Assembly: GCA_963843795.1 (NCBI GenBank)
Contig: CAWJLW010000006.1
Span: 744,001 to 808,000 of the forward strand
Origin: an uncultured bacterium
Lineage (GTDB): Bacteria > Armatimonadota > Abditibacteriia > Abditibacteriales > Abditibacteriaceae
Reading direction: 5' to 3'
Length of the DNA: 64,000 nt
In this document: positions 45,075 through 59,231 of the stretch, piece by piece
Layout: the number at the start of each line of letters is the position of its first letter
Numbering within the stretch: position 1 is the first letter of the stretch
Translations under genes and position numbers: made by a program
The notes under the pieces: generated by a model
Seen by the model: the letters and a program-made list of their open reading frames with translations, nothing else
Databases searched by the model: none
What the model was told of the DNA's origin: nothing

Positions 45075-46289
45075 TCAGTGCCCGCACCAATTCGAGGGCA
45101 AGCACAATTTGGAATGAGTTTGCGAAGCGAAACGGTCGGTCATGCCAGCGATATAATCGCAGACGCGCCGCGCCAGTTGCTTCGTATCGCCAAGCGTTTC
45201 ATCGGTGACTTCAATCTCGGGAGCAGAATCGGAGGTATTGACGGGCAAAATCGCCGCAGGTCGCATCAAATGCGGACGCGCCATAAAACAATCGAACAAT
45301 CCGTTGATAACAGTTTGCACACGCGACGATTCGTCCACACTTTCCAGGGTATAAACATGACTGAACATCCACGTTTTGAGCGCATCGGTCGCCTGTCTCA
45401 CGTCATCCTTCATCGCGATAGTCTCATGAGCCAGCCGCTGCCCGTTACGCACGCTGCTTGAAGCCAGAACTACCGCTAAAACCATGGTTGTGATGCGCTC
45501 GCCATGAGTTTTGCCCAGCACTTTGATGCAATCTGAAGGCAATTCTTCGGCCCGAATCAAGCCGGCGCGGCGCGCGTCGTCGATGTCGTGATTGACATAA
45601 GCGATGCGGTCGCAGATGCGCACGACCTGACCTTCCAAAGTAGAAGGCATAACGTGCGTGCCATCCAAATCTTTTTCGCCTTTGGAGTGGTACAAAATAC
45701 CGTCGCGTGTTTCCCAGGTCAGGTTCAATCCCTGCCCATGATTTTCGAGTTCGTCCACGATGCGCAACGATTGCTCGTAATGGCGAAAATGAGCGTCGGG
45801 ATCGTAGCGCCGATAAGCCGCATCCAGTGCGGCCTCGCCGACATGACCAAAGGGCGCATGGCCCAGATCATGGCCCATGCCAATGGCTTCGACCAAATCT
45901 TCGTTCAAGCGCAACGCACGCGCGACGGTGCGCGCGATTTGCGTGACTTCCAGCGTGTGGGTGAGTCGCGTGCGATAATGATCGCGTTCGGGTGAAACGA
46001 AAACCTGCGTTTTGTGCTTGAGGCGGCGGAAGGCTTTGCAGTGAATGATGCGGTCGCGATCGCGTTGCCACTGCGTGCGCACGGCGTCTTCGGCCTCGGG
46101 CGCTGCGCGTCCACGCGAACGCAGGGCGTGCGCGGCGCGCGGGTCGAGCCACACTTCTTCGCGCTGTTCAGTGGCGCGCCGCAAAAAAGAGAGATCGAGC
46201 GACGATTCGTCGTCCAATAAAGAATCATCTAACGATGAATCGTTTACAGGCAATTCATCTGAAGAATCCAGGGAATCAAGAGAATTCAT
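45075..46289 (-). CDS. dgt: Deoxyguanosinetriphosphate triphosphohydrolase (HD-domain dNTPase)
   Basis: QRDRDRIIHCKAFRRLKHKTQV, RTRLTHTLEV, HDLGHAPFGH, DRIAYVNHDIDD, DYIAGMTD. Confidence 0.93.
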   Translation of the reverse strand: MNSLDSLDSSDELPVNDSSLDDSLLDDESSLDLSFLRRATEQREEVWLDPRAAHALRSRGRAAPEAEDAVRTQWQRDRDRIIHCKAFRRLKHKTQVFVSPERDHYRTRLTHTLEVTQIARTVARALRLNEDLVEAIGMGHDLGHAPFGHVGEAALDAAYRRYDPDAHFRHYEQSLRIVDELENHGQGLNLTWETRDGILYHSKGEKDLDGTHVMPSTLEGQVVRICDRIAYVNHDIDDARRAGLIRAEELPSDCIKVLGKTHGERITTMVLAVVLASSSVRNGQRLAHETIAMKDDVRQATDALKTWMFSHVYTLESVDESSRVQTVINGLFDCFMARPHLMRPAAILPVNTSDSAPEIEVTDETLGDTKQLARRVCDYIAGMTDRFASQTHSKLCLPSNWCGH

Positions 46290-46362
46290 AACGTTTGACC
46301 GAGCAGTATTTTGTGTAACAGGCGCAGTGTGCCACAACAGGTCCCGATGACGCTGCAAGTAC

Positions 46363-46392
46363 TTGCAGCACGATTGAATTTTGCATTACAAT
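46363..46392 (+). promoter_or_regulatory. Putative sigma70 promoter for the candidate retron ncRNA
   Basis: TTGCAG (46363-46368, overlapping the iterated palindrome), 18-bp spacer, TACAAT (46387-46392). Confidence 0.45.
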
Positions 46393-46404
46393 TGTTTTCA
46401 TCGA

Positions 46405-46632
46405 ATGGTTCCAAAACAGTCGGCAATTTGTCCGCGATGTTTCGTCGTGGCCGTTCTTACGCTTTCATTCCATCACGGGTCGCCGGTGCGATTTCACCCC
46501 GTCCCGGTTCAGTAGTGCGCCCCCATCACGCTGAGACAGCACGCTCGTGGCGGCGGCGCACTACTGAACCGGGACGGGGTTACAGTGACCAGCGCCCGTC
46601 CTTTCTTGTTGAGCGACTGTTCTAAAAACCAT
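46405..46632 (+). ncRNA. Candidate retron msr-msd ncRNA
   Basis: Outer inverted repeats ATGGTT..AACAGTCG (46405-46422) and CGACTGTT..AACCAT (46614-46632), an unpaired G at 46423, short hairpins at about 46432-46491, and a perfect 26-bp stem (46496-46521 with 46555-46580). It lies upstream of a retron-RT operon. Confidence 0.7.
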
Positions 46633-46636
46633 CACT

Positions 46637-46682
46637 AAAATGCCGCCGCAAGTACTTGTACCCTAACTTGCGGCGGCATTTT
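46637..46682. terminator. Intrinsic terminator-like hairpin closing the candidate ncRNA
   Basis: AAAATGCCGCCGCAAGT...ACTTGCGGCGGCATTTT, 17-bp arms. Confidence 0.75.
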
Positions 46683-46742
46683 GCGTATTTAAAATTAGTT
46701 GAACCCCCGTAGAAAATTCATAACCTGCCATTGAAGTTGTGG

Positions 46743-46771
46743 TTGACGCAATAGAAGATCTCACATAAAAT
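46743..46771 (+). promoter_or_regulatory. Near-consensus sigma70 promoter for the three-gene RT operon
   Basis: TTGACG, 17-bp spacer, TAAAAT. Confidence 0.7.
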
Positions 46772-50340: not shown

Positions 50341-52326
50341 ATGGAAATCACACAATCGTACGCGAAACCCTCAAGCGCCGCGCCCCGTGGTGAAGGCACG
50401 AACTTTTCGCTTTCAATTCAATCCGAGCGTCCGCCGGTTGCGCTGCAAGCGCTGGTTCTGGATAGCTTGAGTTACGCGCGCGCTATGCTTGCTTTGCACG
50501 AAGTTGTGTCAGGCGATTTGCGCTTCAAGGAAAAAGATCACAGCGCGTATCAAACTTGGGTGCAAGGCCAATATCTTCAAGAACTCGACGCCGTCGCGGG
50601 CGCGCGTTTACGCGCTTTGCCGGGCCAGCACGAGCAATTACAGCGCGTGCGTGAGGCGATGGCACCGCTGCAGAAGCGCGAGCGCGAATTGTATCGCGAC
50701 TATGATGGCGGCGATATGCGGAAAGCCAAAACGCGCTATTGGAAGTACTTGTATACGCACAATAAGGCGTTGTGGTGGCTGCTCGATCCTGTGGTTTCCG
50801 TGCATCCCGATAGCGTGATTTTTGAAGTGTTTTCACAAGATGAATCGAGTTATGGCCGCGTAACCGTTCCGATGGAAAAATTGGATACCATTGGCGAAAC
50901 CGTGTTCGGGACGACGAATGTCGATTTTTCGCAGCGTTTGGCCGATGAATTCAAGCGCGTGCGCAATTATCGTCCGGCGTTTCTGGAAATCGGCGGTGGT
51001 GGCGTCGCGGTTTCGACTTCAGCGGGCACGCAATTCGAGAAAAAAATTGACTTGCCTCCTTCGTGGGTGCGCGGCTTTTTGCAAGTGCAAAGCGCATCAA
51101 GTTTGCCAGGCGAAACCGTGATTTTATCATCAGCAACTGTTAGCGAATTGTTGCTGGTAATGCGTCAACGACGCGAAAAAGGTGGACCGCGCTCGCTGCG
51201 CTTCAAACTGTCACCAAATCAAAAGCCGATCATCGAAATCGAACCGTGGAACATCGAAATTTCAGAGCCGACGCAAATCTGGCAGGGCAGTGGGGCGCAG
51301 GAAATTCGTATCTGGGGCCGTCGTCGTTTGTTCGTTTTAGAATCGCTATTGGCGCACGCACAAACCGTGCAAATCAAGCTCTTGGGTAGCGGAATGCCTT
51401 CCTACTGGAGTGTCGAGCAGGGTGAAGGAGGTCATCGTTTTGAGCTAGGTTTGAGCGGTTGGACAAAAAATGATTGGTCGGGCGCAGCGCGTTTTGACTT
51501 GTTGGCTTCGACGCAAGAAGTGACTGAAGGCGACGTCGAACTAGCTGCCACTCAGTTACAGAATGAATTGAAAATTACGCCCGCCGAACTCGCTCAACGC
51601 AGTGATTTATCACAAAGCAGCGCGACCGGTGCGCTTCAAGAGTTGTGCAAGCAAGGACGCGCGATGTACGATGCGACGCAGGGCGCGTATCGCTGGCGTC
51701 AATTGTTGCCATTTCCAGCGCCCCAAAGCGAAGAAGATAGCCGTCTGGCTGCAGCCAGACGCTACGTACAGCAGAGCGCGGTGAAATGCAAAGAGATCAC
51801 CAATTCGGATGGTTTAAGCGAGTTTTTAGAGCATCAGCTTCAAGACGGCGCGCGCTTGTTCGAGGCGAGCGTAAAAACGACCGGTGGCACGTTCTCGCCG
51901 ACCATCGGTTTGGACGCCGATGGTCGTGCGCGTTTCGCGCAATGTACCTGCGGCGAATTCCGGCGCGATAAGCTGCGTAAAGGCCCGTGCGCGCATATTC
52001 TGGCGGCGTGCGTTATCGCGGCGCAAATGCAAAGCGCTAGCGCGCAGCCAGTCGACCGTTTCAAAGGCCAGACATGGGTTTTTACGGGCGCTTTAAGCTT
52101 GTTCACGCGTGAGCAGGCCGAAAAGCTCATTACCGATGGTGGCGGCAAAGCTAGCGGCAGCGTATCGAAAAATACAACGTATCTGGTAGTCGGTGAACGC
52201 GCTGGCTCGAAATTGGACAAAGCCAAAGACTTGGGTGTGCCAGTAATAACCGAAGCACAATTCGGGCAAGTCCTTGCGGGCAAAGATGTAGCAGCGGTGG
52301 TGCAATCGAGCGAGGCGAAAGCATGA
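50341..52326 (+). CDS. SWIM zinc-finger protein with a C-terminal BRCT domain; retron-associated
   Basis: CTCGEFRRDKLRKGPCAH matches SWIM CxCx(n)CxH. FKGQTWVFTGAL...REQAEKLI..GGKASGSVSKNTTYLVVGERAGSKLDKAKDLGVPVITE resembles a LigA-type BRCT domain. Confidence 0.88.
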   Translation: MEITQSYAKPSSAAPRGEGTNFSLSIQSERPPVALQALVLDSLSYARAMLALHEVVSGDLRFKEKDHSAYQTWVQGQYLQELDAVAGARLRALPGQHEQLQRVREAMAPLQKRERELYRDYDGGDMRKAKTRYWKYLYTHNKALWWLLDPVVSVHPDSVIFEVFSQDESSYGRVTVPMEKLDTIGETVFGTTNVDFSQRLADEFKRVRNYRPAFLEIGGGGVAVSTSAGTQFEKKIDLPPSWVRGFLQVQSASSLPGETVILSSATVSELLLVMRQRREKGGPRSLRFKLSPNQKPIIEIEPWNIEISEPTQIWQGSGAQEIRIWGRRRLFVLESLLAHAQTVQIKLLGSGMPSYWSVEQGEGGHRFELGLSGWTKNDWSGAARFDLLASTQEVTEGDVELAATQLQNELKITPAELAQRSDLSQSSATGALQELCKQGRAMYDATQGAYRWRQLLPFPAPQSEEDSRLAAARRYVQQSAVKCKEITNSDGLSEFLEHQLQDGARLFEASVKTTGGTFSPTIGLDADGRARFAQCTCGEFRRDKLRKGPCAHILAACVIAAQMQSASAQPVDRFKGQTWVFTGALSLFTREQAEKLITDGGGKASGSVSKNTTYLVVGERAGSKLDKAKDLGVPVITEAQFGQVLAGKDVAAVVQSSEAKA

Positions 52327-53975: not shown

Positions 53976-54986
53976 TCATTTTTCTGCCATTTCCTTCCAG
54001 CGCTCATCGGCGAAGCGCAGGGAATCGTGATAATGTTGAGTCAGAAATTCCCATGTGTGGTCGCCGGGAAAGATGTGCGCTTCGAAGTCGATATGGCGCG
54101 CTTGCAGTTCGGCTTCCATTTTTTTGAATTCGTCCAGCAAATCGTCGTCGGCACCAACATCCATATACAAATGCAGTCGCGTGCCAGTTGGCAAGGCGCG
54201 CACCAAGCGTAGAGGGCTGTTCTGCTGCCACAGCGGGCCGGGCGAGCCGAGAAAACGCGTCATGGCTTTGGGGTCGTCATTGGGATCGAAGAAGCCCGAA
54301 TGGGAAGCCATCACCGTCCACACCTTGGGATGTTTGAGGCCCAAGTTTGCCGCGCCGTAACCGCCTGCCGAAAAGCCAATTAGCGCGCGCGATTGGGCGT
54401 CAGCACGGGTGCGAAAATGGGCGTCGATCCACGGCACCAGTTCTTGCACCGTGAAATCTTCCATCGCAATGCCATCGCGCCGATTTAGATAATACGTGGT
54501 GTCCTCGACGCCTTTTGGCCCTGTCCCGTCCCATCCGACTAAAATTAGTGATGCGATTTGCCCGCTTGTAATCAGCTTTTCGGCCACGCGATGCACGCGC
54601 GCATTGACAAAGCAATCGCGCACGCCGCCCGGCGCGCCGTGCAAGATATAAGCGACCGGATAACGAGCGTTGGTTTGCTCTTGATAATTTGGCGGCAAAT
54701 AGACCCACACGTTCGATTTGCGCTTCAAGCGCGAGCTATATGGCATCGAAAGGCGCAGCAGTTGGCCACGCAAGCCCGCGACCAGAGCGATATCTTGCTT
54801 TTTGAGCAGCGCCAAATGTTTGGCCTTATCCGCTGACAGCGTGGCCGTCGGTTTCGCTGTCGCTTGAGGTTTGGTTGCAATTGTCTTCGGCGGTGCGGCG
54901 GTGGAAGCGTTTTGGGGTGCGCAGGACAGTTGGGGCAGCACGGTGGCCAAGGCAAATATGCAGCTAATGGAAAGGTTGAATTTCAT
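53976..54986 (-). CDS. Alpha/beta-hydrolase esterase, probable lipoprotein
   Basis: Signal peptide with LSC; VYLPPNY, LHG, GFSAGG nucleophile elbow, GDHTW. Confidence 0.88.
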   Translation of the reverse strand: MKFNLSISCIFALATVLPQLSCAPQNASTAAPPKTIATKPQATAKPTATLSADKAKHLALLKKQDIALVAGLRGQLLRLSMPYSSRLKRKSNVWVYLPPNYQEQTNARYPVAYILHGAPGGVRDCFVNARVHRVAEKLITSGQIASLILVGWDGTGPKGVEDTTYYLNRRDGIAMEDFTVQELVPWIDAHFRTRADAQSRALIGFSAGGYGAANLGLKHPKVWTVMASHSGFFDPNDDPKAMTRFLGSPGPLWQQNSPLRLVRALPTGTRLHLYMDVGADDDLLDEFKKMEAELQARHIDFEAHIFPGDHTWEFLTQHYHDSLRFADERWKEMAEK

Positions 54987-55054
54987 GAAAAAGGCCTGTC
55001 GGAATCTGTGAATTTTTACAGGCACGATTACGATTGGGTTGCGTCGTGCGCGCT

Positions 55055-55987
55055 ATGAGGATTAGAAAACAAAAAGGTCGAAAAGCCTGCGGTTTTTCGC
55101 GGCTTGCATGGTCGCTGGGCATAATGGTGCCCGGGGCTCCGGCATTGGCAGATGCCATAAGCGCACCTGACGTTCCGGTTTTGCGTGGGCGGCTGGTTTT
55201 GAAGTCGATGCCGCTTTCGCCCATCGTCAATCGCAAAATCACGACGTGGGTTTATCTACCGCCTGGCTACGACACTGCGACCAAACGTTATCCGGTGATG
55301 TATCTGCTGCACGGACAGCCCGGCGGTTGGACGGATTGCTACCAGTCAGGGCGTGTTGAAGAAATGGCCGATAATCTTATTAGCGCTGGCAAAATGCCGC
55401 CCGTGATTCTGGTTGCTTTCGATGGCGACGGGCCAAATGGCGTTAAAGACCTCACCAACTTTTGCAATCGCATCGATGGTTATCGCACCGAAGATTTCGT
55501 TGTGCAGGAACTGGTGCCTTATATCGATGCCACTTATCGCACCCTGCCCAACGCCGCTAAGCGCGCGCTGTGGGGCTATTCTTCGGGTGGTTACGGCGCT
55601 CTTAATCTGGGCATCAAGCATCCCGCTCTATGGAGCGTCATTTGTTCGCACGCCGGTTTTTATCAGCCCTCCGATGATGGCAGAGTGATGAACAAAATTC
55701 TTGGCCCACCCGGCTCGAATTGGGACGCCAACAGCACGCTCGTCAATGTCCAAAATTTGCCCGAAAATGCGCCACTGCATTTCTACCTGAATGCCAGTCC
55801 CAACGAAGACAGTTACGAGGGTTTTCAACAATTGGTGGCACAGCTCAAGGCGCGCCATATTGATGTCGAAACCAAAGTGCTGAAAAAGGCCCATGCTTGG
55901 CGCTTGATCGTCGAAAATTGCCGCGAATCGTTGCTTTTTGCCGGCCAATGTTTCAATAATACCGCCGCGTCAGAAAAAGCGCGCTGA
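55055..55987 (+). CDS. Alpha/beta-hydrolase esterase, probably exported
   Basis: Signal-like N-terminus (ALA-D); VYLPPGY, LHG, GYSSGG, AHAW. Confidence 0.88.
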   Translation: MRIRKQKGRKACGFSRLAWSLGIMVPGAPALADAISAPDVPVLRGRLVLKSMPLSPIVNRKITTWVYLPPGYDTATKRYPVMYLLHGQPGGWTDCYQSGRVEEMADNLISAGKMPPVILVAFDGDGPNGVKDLTNFCNRIDGYRTEDFVVQELVPYIDATYRTLPNAAKRALWGYSSGGYGALNLGIKHPALWSVICSHAGFYQPSDDGRVMNKILGPPGSNWDANSTLVNVQNLPENAPLHFYLNASPNEDSYEGFQQLVAQLKARHIDVETKVLKKAHAWRLIVENCRESLLFAGQCFNNTAASEKAR

Positions 55988-55989
55988 AA

Positions 55990-57417
55990 TCAGCGCATCT
56001 GCGGCACGCCCATTTTGTCGAATCGCGCGTCAATGAACCGAAGCGAATCGTAGAAGTGAGTGCTCCAATATTCCCAAGTGTGGCGGCCCGGAAAAACATG
56101 ACATTCGTGGTCCATGTTTTTACTTTGCAACTGCGCGCAAAACTGCGAAAATTCAGCGCTCAACTGGTCGCTCTGTCCGATATCGGCATACACATGCAGG
56201 TTTTGCGCGGGCGAGATTTGCGCAACGGTTTTTAGCGGATTATTGGCGACCCACAGCAGCCCTTTGGGGCCAAGAATGTCGGTCATGTTATCGGCATCAT
56301 CGGCAGGATCGAAAAAACCGGTGTGTGAAGCGCCGATTTTCCACACTTCGGGATGTTTAAACATCAGATTCACTGCCGCGTAACCGCCCGCTGAAACGCC
56401 GCACAGCGCGCGCGCTTCGGGTCGCGCGATGGTGCGATAAGTGCGGTCGATATAAGGAACCAGTTCTTTCACCATGAAACTTTCCATCGGCCAACTGCCA
56501 TCAGCGCGGTCGAGAAAATTAGTGATGTCGTTCGGCCCGTTGGGGCCTTGTCCGTCCCATCCGACCAAAATCATCGGCTTGATTTTGCGCCCTAGAATCA
56601 ATTCTTCGGCGGCGTTGTGAATCTGCCCTTTGACAAAGCAATCGCGCACTTCGCCTGGCATTCCGTGCATCACGTAAACCACCGGATAACGCACGCTCAA
56701 GCGGTTGTAGCCCGGTGGTAAATAAACCCATGTGGTGATTTTGCGCTTTAATAAGGGGCTGAGCGGCATTGATTTAGGAACCAGCTTACCCGACAATTTT
56801 TCATCCAAAACCGCCGCTTCCTGTCGCGCGTGGAACCAGCGCAAATACGAAGGCCACGCCGCGCGCCCAACTGCAAACAGCACAATCGCCGCCCCCAGTC
56901 TGGCAAGTACTTGCGTGCGTCTGAGCGCCCGCTGTTGCGGCGATAACGGCGCGATTTCGACCAGCTCCCTCACGCGCAGATCGTTTTGTAAAATTGCCCA
57001 GCGTTGCCTGGCACTGATGATCCAAATTGTCAGCAAAAGAACGGCGTAAGCCGCAGTCGTTTGTTTGCTCGCGACTGATAAATCATCGCTCAGCATGAAC
57101 AGCGGCAACAGGCCCAAAATCACGCGCGGCGCGGCCAGCCACAACGTGGCGCGCGATAAGCGCGGCACCATCAGGCATAAAGCGAGCGCGATTTCCCAAC
57201 TCGCCAATAATATTCGATTGCTGTGTGGCGTCAAGCGTCCGACCGAGAGAATGCTCAGCACGCGCGAAGCGTAATCGAGCGCTGTGTTGGGCGCGCCGTG
57301 CCAGTGTGCCAGCGCGCTCCACGCCAGAATGGCAGCGATTAAGACTGCAAGTACTTGCAGACCGTGCTGCGCCATCCATCCCAAAGAACGCGCTGCTACA
57401 CGTCGAGGTTGAATCAC
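55990..57417 (-). CDS. Membrane-anchored alpha/beta-hydrolase esterase
   Basis: GTG start overlapping the upstream stop, with a GGAGG SD; N-terminal TM segments; VYLPPGY, GVSAGG, GRHTW. Confidence 0.85.
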   Translation of the reverse strand: MIQPRRVAARSLGWMAQHGLQVLAVLIAAILAWSALAHWHGAPNTALDYASRVLSILSVGRLTPHSNRILLASWEIALALCLMVPRLSRATLWLAAPRVILGLLPLFMLSDDLSVASKQTTAAYAVLLLTIWIISARQRWAILQNDLRVRELVEIAPLSPQQRALRRTQVLARLGAAIVLFAVGRAAWPSYLRWFHARQEAAVLDEKLSGKLVPKSMPLSPLLKRKITTWVYLPPGYNRLSVRYPVVYVMHGMPGEVRDCFVKGQIHNAAEELILGRKIKPMILVGWDGQGPNGPNDITNFLDRADGSWPMESFMVKELVPYIDRTYRTIARPEARALCGVSAGGYAAVNLMFKHPEVWKIGASHTGFFDPADDADNMTDILGPKGLLWVANNPLKTVAQISPAQNLHVYADIGQSDQLSAEFSQFCAQLQSKNMDHECHVFPGRHTWEYWSTHFYDSLRFIDARFDKMGVPQMR

Positions 57418-59231
57418 GTGGCCTCCACTTGGGGCGCGTCGTGGGGCGCGCCCGATTTGGCTTGCGCTCCGGGTTCGTCGTGTTCGCCCCGCAGGTGCTT
57501 CAGGAAGTCCCACCACGAATCTTGCCCCGAATCGGCGCGAATAATCGCGGCGGCGATAGCGGGCAAACCGGCTTTGCCGGCGTAAGCCAGGTAAATCGGT
57601 CGCCATTCGGGATGAAATTTTTCTTTGAACGAATGCAAACCTTTGAAATTGTAAAACTGATTGATGTGTTCATAGATAAAGTGCAGCGCCTTTTCCGCTG
57701 CGGGATCGTGGGCTTCTTCTCCCACCATGGCAAACGGGCTGGGGCCTAAATTGAACGTATCGAAACCTTCGCTTTTGGCCCACTCGAACAGCGATACGAA
57801 CAATAATTCCATGGTGCCCTTGGCGGTTTCGGGGCGGCGGCGCATTAAATCGACGGTGATTTCATTGAGATTGTAGCAACTGACAATGTTGGCAAAAGCC
57901 GTGATACTGCCGCTTTCGTCGGAAATTGCCATCACGGGGCCGTTGCGAATATATTCGTCGTCGAACCAACCCAGCGAAAACTGCTTTTCGCTGCCGTGCA
58001 TCATCGCCAGCCACTCGTCGGAAACTGCGCGCAATTCTTCCAGCAGAGCACTTGAAAGCGGCGGCGCGTGGTATTTCGCTTGATGTCCGGCTTTGGTGAT
58101 CTGGTTGGTCACGTTGCGCAGGCTCTTGCCTTCTTTACCAGCCAGCGAAAATTCCTGCACGTTCACTACGGCTTCGTGCGCGATGCGCAAAACTTCCAAG
58201 CCCGCAGCGCGATAATCGTCCAAAAGTTCGTCGTAAACTTCATAAAACGCGGGACGCCAATCGTTTTGCGCGCAGAAACCGACGAAGCCTGCAATGGCGG
58301 CGCGCGCGTCTTCGCGTGGGCCAATTGGTTCGCCCAATGCGACGGCAATGCGCCCGACTAAGGCATAGGAAATCAGCGAGCCGCCGGGCGAAAACCAGTA
58401 AATTTTATCGTCAAACAAGGCGCAAAACGCCAACGCTGTGCGCCCGTGCGCCTGCACGATTTGCCTCACGCGCTGGCGTTCTTCGTCAGCAGCGTTGGCG
58501 CGCAACATCACGGGACGCGCCAGCATCAGCAGCGCGTAGCCGAAAGTCGCGGCGGCCACGATGTAAATCGAATCGGCGAAGTAGCGTCCGAAGCCGGTGA
58601 TAGGTTCCAAGCCTGGGTTGGCAAATTCGGTAAACATGGCCAGCGTTTGTTGAAGCGCCGCGCTGAGGTTGAAGTTCACCTGAAAATGTCGATCCAGCAG
58701 ATAAAAACCGACCGTGCCGTAAGCCAGTGTGAAGGCAAAAGCCAGTGCAAGTACTTGCAGGCCGCGCTGCACCGAAGGTGCGTCCGAGCGCGCGTGAAAC
58801 TGCGCGCGCGCCAGCCACAGCCAAACCGCCAGCGCTAACGCACAAATCGCTTCTTCGTAATCTAAACCTTTGAGCAGATGCCCCAGTGCAGAGATGAGAA
58901 GCGCGACCAGCGTCAAAGCCCACGCGACTTGCTTGCGACGCCACAGGCTTTGCGCCAGCAGCAGTAGGGCGAAGCCAGCCAGAACCGTTGTGAGATGACC
59001 ACTGCGCCTCGCATCAAAGGGCAACGCATCCCAAAGTACTTGTACGCGCGCGGGTAAGCTGGGCGTTGCAGCCGACCACACATTCATCAACCCCATCAGC
59101 GCCGTCAAAATTGCTGGCACGCGCACGGCCCACAGCGCGCGCCGATGATTAACTGGCGCGGGTGAAACCGCTTGTGGCGGCGCGAAGTTAGCTTCAAAAA
59201 AATTGGCTTCAGAAGATTGAGTGTCTTGCAT
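57414..59231 (-). CDS. Aminoacyl-phosphatidylglycerol synthase (MprF synthase domain, DUF2156) with TM segments
   Basis: HLLKGLDYEEA, ALGEPIG, EKQFSLG, VDLMRR, YNFKGLHSFKEKFHPEW. Confidence 0.9.
   Translation of the reverse strand: MQDTQSSEANFFEANFAPPQAVSPAPVNHRRALWAVRVPAILTALMGLMNVWSAATPSLPARVQVLWDALPFDARRSGHLTTVLAGFALLLLAQSLWRRKQVAWALTLVALLISALGHLLKGLDYEEAICALALAVWLWLARAQFHARSDAPSVQRGLQVLALAFAFTLAYGTVGFYLLDRHFQVNFNLSAALQQTLAMFTEFANPGLEPITGFGRYFADSIYIVAAATFGYALLMLARPVMLRANAADEERQRVRQIVQAHGRTALAFCALFDDKIYWFSPGGSLISYALVGRIAVALGEPIGPREDARAAIAGFVGFCAQNDWRPAFYEVYDELLDDYRAAGLEVLRIAHEAVVNVQEFSLAGKEGKSLRNVTNQITKAGHQAKYHAPPLSSALLEELRAVSDEWLAMMHGSEKQFSLGWFDDEYIRNGPVMAISDESGSITAFANIVSCYNLNEITVDLMRRRPETAKGTMELLFVSLFEWAKSEGFDTFNLGPSPFAMVGEEAHDPAAEKALHFIYEHINQFYNFKGLHSFKEKFHPEWRPIYLAYAGKAGLPAIAAAIIRADSGQDSWWDFLKHLRGEHDEPGAQAKSGAPHDAPQVEAT

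Follow-up and report, generated by a model that had tools for sequence, protein, structure and literature searches.

The usual layout of a retron places its RNA contiguous with the gene of the reverse transcriptase (RT). At the locus described here, which belongs to type XIII, the family of the first retron found, this is not the case, and the question arises where the RNA is encoded. The locus lies in the window, i.e. a stretch of 64,000 nt (contig CAWJLW010000006.1, positions 744,001 to 808,000) from an uncultured bacterium of the family Abditibacteriaceae with a 4.3-Mb, 92%-complete genome (G000). The RT open reading frame starts at 52323 and overlaps the stop of the preceding gene at 52326, and therefore leaves no room for an adjacent RNA, as a first-pass annotation of this DNA had rightly remarked. 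With a probability of about 0.9, the region 46400-46635, separated from the RT gene by two genes and ca. 5.7 kb, is a conserved structured RNA gene that heads the type XIII retron operon and provides template and primer for the RT. It is very likely a functional retron RNA whose type is known but whose position is rearranged throughout a branch.

Table 1. Features of the predicted retron RNA and its operon (window coordinates)
Feature	Position	Strand	Details
Sigma-70-like promoter candidate	46363..46392	+	TTGCAG, 18 nt, TACAAT; 8/12 consensus matches
Predicted msr-msd RNA	46400..46635	+	Ends approximate
5' arm of terminal inverted repeat	46405..46422	+	6 bp, internal loop, 8 bp
Candidate branching G	46423	+	Context CGGC; in relatives CGGC, TGGC, CAGC, TAGC
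Conserved msr hairpin	46432..46450	+	8 bp, 3-nt loop
CAC motif	46474..46476	+	35 nt past the G closing the msr loop
Basal msd stem	46475..46599	+	46475-46487 paired with 46588-46599; absent from the first-pass annotation
Long msd stem with 33-nt tip	46496..46580	+	26 perfect bp, 46496-46521/46555-46580
Opposing unpaired G	46613	+	Predicted first or next-to-first templated base
3' arm of terminal inverted repeat	46614..46632	+	
17-bp perfect hairpin with TTTT end, possible terminator	46637..46682	+	Holds the core of a genome-wide palindrome
Second promoter-like site	46743..46771	+	TTGACG, 17 nt, TAAAAT; 10/12 matches; precedes the protein genes
HEAT/ARM-like protein, 1092 aa	46933..50211	+	Likely start ATG 46981
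Type XIII SWIM protein	50341..52326	+	Predicted PCNA-fold domain (ca. aa 34-375), winged helix, SWIM zinc finger, BRCT
Type XIII retron RT, 480 aa	52323..53765	+	PADLOC RT_XIII 5e-148, next model 1e-82

The operon and its proteins

The three co-oriented genes behind the RNA, ARM, SWIM, and RT, are the gene set of type XIII retrons of RT clade 10, which include Retron-Mxa1/Mx162, Mxa2/Mx65, Sau1/Sa163, and Nex2/Ne144 (PMC7736814). The locus shares with them an RT with a long N-terminal extension, a winged-helix/SWIM protein with the CxCx12CxH motif (cluster-114; here aa 535-552), an upstream HEAT/ARM gene, reported before the SWIM gene in many, not all, type XIII retrons (PMC7736814), and an RNA with arms, a priming G, an msr hairpin, and a long msd stem, close in size to the 241-nt Mx162 transcript (PMC6868368). 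Unlike in the published members, the RNA precedes the ARM gene, 5.7 kb from the RT, the RT and SWIM genes overlap, the SWIM protein has a BRCT domain, and the acidic region of this protein is predicted to form a PCNA-type clamp domain rather than the transposase-like DEDE domain proposed in print.

The RT carries the motifs NARFH at 241 (NAXXH), YADD at 349, and VTG at 398. Its best relative of solved structure is the Ec86 RT (E 1e-37), and the nearest titled relative among the matches listed, from an Abditibacteriaceae MAG, is 60% identical. It is the sole RVT_1 match in the genome, which, together with the split of RNA position along the RT tree (see below), bears out the earlier assignment of the RNA to an RT 5.7 kb away. 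PADLOC matches of the ARM gene are weak and partial (WGR_XIII 3e-10, HEAT-ARM_XIII 7e-10) and become stronger in relatives (to 7e-25); a Pfam scan of the ARM protein gave no match, and its homologues hold the same position in related loci. The SWIM protein is matched by PADLOC SWIM_XIII (5e-170) and by the Pfam SWIM and BRCT models, with the winged helix at aa 393-458. The unit is flanked by an ordinary equivalog of a dGTP triphosphohydrolase gene (45075-46358, minus strand) and, on the other side, by a cluster of related esterase-family genes (53976-57606).

In an AlphaFold2 model of SWIM residues 1-570 (59-row alignment, pLDDT 82), a clamp region with a helical insert is followed by the winged helix, SWIM, and BRCT parts. 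Residues ca. 34-375 of this predicted model resemble PCNA (Foldseek E 2.6e-9), and comparison with PCNA (VIA) gives Z 20.0 and an rmsd of 2.9 A over 232 aligned residues with 11% identity. The protein is thus predicted to have a PCNA clamp fold; a shared fold by itself shows no function. The SWIM family profile found no sequence relative below E 0.04 among solved structures, and most ESM Atlas matches to the ARM and clamp regions were clusters without a name. A relaxed DEDE pattern matches the SWIM protein from aa 149, and many invariant acidic residues are located in the predicted clamp fold.

The locus offers the concrete hypothesis that a clamp-fold partner reads a DNA stem of fixed length. 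The SWIM protein might join the RT and the ARM protein in a complex and hold the stem there; the stem, free in sequence but fixed in length, might serve as a decoy reporting tampering by phage DNA-processing proteins, and such a report might trigger a protective response. A defence role of the system is given slightly better than even odds and is favoured over repair. The rather unlikely alternative is that the same RNA and RT yield a product with a domesticated role in DNA-damage signalling or repair, not in phage defence. It would agree with the presence of a full RT in 16 of 25 host-family genomes, a GC content of the unit matching that of the host, the nature of the clamp fold, BRCT, winged helix, and SWIM as DNA-metabolism modules, the addition of WGR-PARP in a sister branch, and the vertical inheritance of type XIII noted in PMC7736814. 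It is opposed by the flanking dGTPase gene, which stands beside no other locus examined, and by several traits typical of defence: the system is patchily distributed and present twice in some genomes, its RNA varies in copy number, and the stems change fast. Moreover, where tested, retrons of other types protect against phage (10.1101/2020.06.21.156273). The literature found on type XIII, in searches not aimed at the clamp fold, consists of classification or survey papers alone, whose accessible text gives no mechanism and no defence phenotype; that of PMC12548924 and 10.1101/2024.07.21.604473 holds nothing further on this type.

Structure, conservation, and predicted priming of the RNA

The window RNA has the layout of a retron RNA, with terminal arms ending at two opposing unpaired Gs, short msr hairpin(s), and a long msd stem. 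The 5' arm comprises ATGGTT (46405-46410) and AACAGTCG (46415-46422). Every element listed in the first-pass annotation is found where it had been placed, and the proposed msr-msd identity is upheld by the fold, covariation, the G:G junction, and the type XIII genes downstream; the suggested length of 230-280 nt compares with ca. 235-285 nt supported here. Folding of 46395-46690, as had been advised, gives -146.2 kcal/mol (z -10.86; none of 200 shuffles folds as well). However, the repeat-type hairpin behind the RNA falls within this segment and long palindromes abound in the genome, and therefore conservation is stronger proof than the z-score.

The loci compared were the best 80 of at least 404 confirmed in a genome-collection scan and 19 stretches from relatives; homologues of the window RNA were found before the ARM gene in related loci. 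In a plain MAFFT alignment of 18 copies, two-sided change is seen in 40 of the 50 predicted pairs. The share of paired cells is 88.7%, versus 63.8% in shuffles, a comparison inflated by the kinship of the sequences, and 34-46% with slid partners; the structure was derived from the same alignment. The msr hairpin is paired in 95.8% of cells, with two-sided change in five of eight pairs, and the basal msd stem in 94.4%, with two-sided change in 6 of 11. The structure of the window RNA is real: its pairs are conserved through compensatory change, and the covariance model from homologous loci called for earlier could be built (R1). Two small hairpins of the first-pass annotation fared unequally, CCGT/ACGG being poorly retained (two of four pairs form in 9-10 of 18 copies) and TCGC/GCGA being retained in part (three inner pairs in 15-17 of 18 copies, the outer pair in 6 of 18); the bases of both pair better in the basal stem with 46588-46599 (94% of cells).

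The arms and the long stem have a mean identity of only ca. 30-31%, versus 64-82% in the flanking core. Among 21 copies (L118 left out for want of the G:G register, L116 and L117 not included), the own 3' arm is the best partner of the 5' arm in 17, and the long stem pairs best with its own partner in all; the G:G register is present in 21 of 22 copies tested. The long msd stem is free in sequence and kept in length. By a crude measure, the median span of the msd hairpin is 86 nt in 31 operon-head copies, 126 nt in seven copies of a PARP branch, and 62 nt in 47 RT-adjacent copies. A long stem that accepts any sequence also lends itself to carrying cargo in retron tools. Some msd stems contain perfect palindromes of at least 6 nt, but that of the window has none, and therefore no bait-palindrome claim is made.

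TAGC and CAGC are named as priming contexts in PMC6868368, and G46423, within CGGC, aligns with the CAGC and TAGC of relatives. It stands opposite G46613, as in the scheme of 10.1101/2020.06.21.156273, and its nomination as branch point gains from both the conserved G:G register and the aligned context. By analogy with other retrons, the arms of the RNA would pair, the RT would prime from the 2'-OH of G46423 and copy from ca. 46613 back to ca. 46470, RNase H would strip the template, and the product would be a branched RNA-DNA molecule with a DNA hairpin predicted at ca. 140-145 nt. Of the copies in which the msr hairpin was located, 21 of 32 at operon heads and 35 of 36 next to the RT have CAC at the offset seen in the window; the spacing from the priming G to the msr loop has its mode at 14 and that from the loop to CAC at 35, in both groups. 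The CAC is likely near the stop site and the RNA-DNA overlap. With a stop at this point, the DNA part of the msDNA is predicted at 138-146 nt, more likely than the 120-130 nt of the first-pass annotation because the msd includes the conserved basal stem; a shorter DNA of ca. 120-125 nt, via the partly conserved TCGC/GCGA hairpin, is left open.

The arm of the window RNA is the weakest measured, with 14 pairs versus 16-26 in other copies and a pairing energy of -15.6 kcal/mol (best non-cognate pairing -13.3, family mean -27.0), and so this copy may be less active. That it is a decaying copy, made inactive by the weak arm and the insertion of the repeat-type hairpin immediately behind it, is improbable in view of the perfect 26-bp stem, three open genes, intact RT motifs, eight contiguous pairs at the G:G junction, and an R1 score of 207.8 bits, among the best though that of a training member.

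Position and transcription of the RNA

R1, built from operon-head copies alone, also matches RNAs that lie between SWIM and RT in distant type XIII loci, several of them immediately 5' of the RT (L074, L055, L036, L028, L042, and L039; E 3e-9 to 3e-3). A full type XIII RT is present in 17 of 41 genomes; 16 of the 17 (many having supplied training copies of R1) show a strong R1 match, and the RNA of the remaining one is cut by a contig end. Two more genomes match R1 strongly. In one, the contig that carries the RNA breaks off within the RT; the other (G005, 330 contigs, two RNA copies) has an ARM gene truncated by the contig end and gave no RT_XIII match. The one weak match is not a full copy. 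Searched with R1, 121 genomes of the phylum show the RNA in 16, and, as a blind test, of the eight new places six have ARM-SWIM-RT behind the RNA, one is at a contig edge, and one is an orphan. Five whole myxobacterial genomes gave no R1 match, although L065 and L039 matched weakly in a loci-only search, and a direct link to the Mx162 RNA was therefore not obtained.

The position of the RNA was surveyed with an iterated nhmmer profile giving 0 decoy hits on reversed loci, after L101, L110, and L033 had been dropped as duplicates or apparent duplicates. It heads the operon in 24 loci, 4,981-8,268 nt before the RT, and is RT-adjacent in 36, all within 724 nt and 34 within 120 nt. In a 95-row FastTree tree, the 22 head rows all fall in one 35-row branch and the 36 adjacent rows all outside it; in a 30-row IQ-TREE subset, hand-chosen from the two groups, 15 rows are separated from the other 15 by one change with 100/100 support. 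The trees are unrooted and so do not show which way the RNA moved, although retron RNAs usually adjoin the RT. The RNA thus stands at the operon front, 5-8 kb from the RT, across the whole head branch of type XIII. No RNA match at threshold was found in 37 of the 95 rows (22 with long upstream sequence, 15 with short), of which four long and nine short ones are inside the head branch; RT-upstream gaps folded in seven RNA-less loci gave hairpins and no recognisable retron layout.

Retron RNAs have been sought within 500 bp of the RT (10.1101/2024.01.25.577267), within 250 nt (10.1101/2020.06.21.156273), and, in de novo discovery, within 600 bp (PMC13712802), while the covariance-model search of PMC13712802 spans 10 kb around RTs and that of PADLOC (PMC9252829) whole genomes. 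The warning that an RT-adjacent search would miss this RNA thus holds for ranges of 250-600 nt; the wider searches would span the distance if their models match, and so distance alone does not hide the RNA. The locus and its relatives provide a well-supported RNA model for a branch left RNA-less by RT-proximal searches, along with a precise msDNA prediction. In the accessible literature no operon-head retron RNA is described; Figure 5 and the supplement of PMC7736814 may show this order.

The gap between the RNA and the first gene is 297 nt in the window and contains the 17-bp hairpin and the second promoter-like site. Among 26 loci, with start codons placed approximately, it is ca. 120 nt or less in 23, and the window, L016, and L108 are the only ones with more than 150 nt; by eye, a strong hairpin can be made out in ca. 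5 of the 26. A promoter-like site precedes the first RNA copy in 19 of 26 loci versus 3.75% of random windows, a background understated because these were mostly coding. In the window itself, the putative promoter annotated earlier corresponds to the 8/12 site, whose -35 part derives from the genome-wide palindrome and which is absent from a stricter consensus scan. Similarly, the hairpin annotated as a terminator is present, but it was uncalled by a consensus terminator scan and carries the palindrome. In the genome of the window, the RNA is probably transcribed from a promoter of its own to a stop of its own, with a second promoter for the proteins, whereas in most relatives it probably forms the 5' leader of the operon transcript. 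The earlier description of a stand-alone, independently transcribed RNA is therefore plausible for the window genome, where separate transcription may be recent, but it is not the rule. One soil DNA run (a quarter of the query words, contigs nearly without RNA coverage) is uninformative on expression or msDNA.

The short distance to the first gene and the location at the operon 5' end would also suit a cis-regulatory leader or small RNA that is never reverse transcribed. This reading is very improbable, as the same RNA family adjoins the RT in 36 other loci, the G:G junction and free-sequence arms are retron features, and a leader fits poorly with tandem copies differing in their stems and with the 297-nt gap of the window. 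A housekeeping RNA (6S, SRP, tmRNA, riboswitch) or a dispersed repeat, suggested by the richness of the genome in long palindromic repeats, has a negligible chance: the Rfam scan of the window proposed earlier gave no match at gathering score (by E-value only hairpin matches far below threshold), tRNA and tmRNA scans found none at the RNA, only 16 of the 121 phylum genomes have it, and it is single-copy in G000.

The dispersed-repeat check named in the first-pass annotation thus ruled out a repeat origin of the single-copy RNA; only the flanking palindrome is repeated, and the downstream hairpin is accepted as repeat-type. The 12-bp palindrome occurs in 2,567 copies in G000 (ca. 600 per Mb), in spacers and inside genes, versus 0-3 times in each of 40 relatives, among them a congeneric genome, 63% complete, with 0. 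Its window sites include 46355, 46649, 48006, 50236, and 52760, and within the ARM and RT genes it is translated as LQVLA. Of the 2,397 core sites on the main contig, 452 lie at the centre of a perfect repeat at least 14 bp long.

Related systems and variant loci

Retron types are assigned by partner genes, and an intervening gene is already known from St85-like retrons. In Retron-Sen2/St85 and Retron-Vmi1/Vm85 (PMC11701397), as in the window, the RNA heads the unit and an effector gene precedes the RT; there, however, one ORF of ca. 320 codons intervenes, versus two or three large genes (5-8 kb) here, and the RT clade and partners differ. The repeats of Retron-Nex1 (Ne160; PMC6868368) are msr-msd copies without an RT within a kilobase, similarly to an orphan RNA in G070 (see below), but they are duplicated repeats, whereas the distant RNA of the window is the regular operon-linked copy. 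In UG27 (10.64898/2026.09.22.753630), one RT unit is accompanied by several RNA units, which share a frame but differ in the hairpins that are copied into short DNA; unlike the window, with its one RNA, these systems are non-retron and mostly phage-encoded. In the accessible literature there are no natural retron RNA arrays beyond the Ne160 repeats, the UG27 arrays being non-retron.

The relatives provide natural variants for comparative tests: single, tandem, orphan, and long-stem with PARP. Tandem arrays of two to four complete RNA units, with a near-identical core and differing arms and stems, occur only in relatives, the window having a single RNA. They are found in 7 of 24 head loci plus two RT-less contigs (L105, L106, L108, L119, L120, L121, L122, L009, L015) and in 6 of 36 RT-adjacent loci (L020, L021, L027, L029, L035, L071). 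In G070, an intact-looking orphan RNA (L127, G070:C65:6311-6563, minus strand), with arms and a downstream hairpin, lies among unrelated genes, and the single RT_XIII operon of this genome, with its own RNA, is on another contig. The orphan is a candidate trans-acting template.

In a sister sub-branch (L010:3075-4367, L111, L113, L115, L116, L117, and the split L123/L112), the first gene after the RNA codes for a WGR, PARP-regulatory, and PARP-catalytic protein with the H-Y-E residues kept, and the msd stem is ca. 50 bp long rather than ca. 30. The PARP members with G handles are all of one genus and so are not independent. In the window's genome the WGR-PARP gene was not found with the query used, and the literature search returned no paper combining retron, PARP, WGR, and bacterial. 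The observations can be joined into a speculative reading, doubtful as a whole, in which the head branch uncoupled its template RNA from the RT gene, so that the RNA became modular, separately promoted, able to duplicate and diverge, and trans-capable; its DNA rods, free in sequence and set in length, would be measured by the PCNA-fold ring, and one sub-branch would have lengthened the rod to ca. 50 bp and coupled it to WGR-PARP with its intact H-Y-E triad, to form a bacterial ADP-ribosylation alarm gated by retron DNA.

Several loci depart from these patterns. Close Bacteroidota relatives of the RT (L006, L008, L012, L013, L014, L017) gave no RNA match; three of them have no SWIM match in the locus and may be split or degenerate systems. 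In cyanobacterial type XIII RT loci (L064, L067, L069, L075, L077), the profile gave short partial matches ca. 1.9 kb past the RT start but nothing upstream of it. Two Bacteroidota loci of the head type have extra genes between SWIM and RT (L009:8937-9893 and L015:8211-9767), that of L009 with a WGR domain. Finally, in L119 (G014:C8) the ARM, SWIM, and RT genes are each fragmented, by decay or sequencing error, and the three RNA copies look intact.
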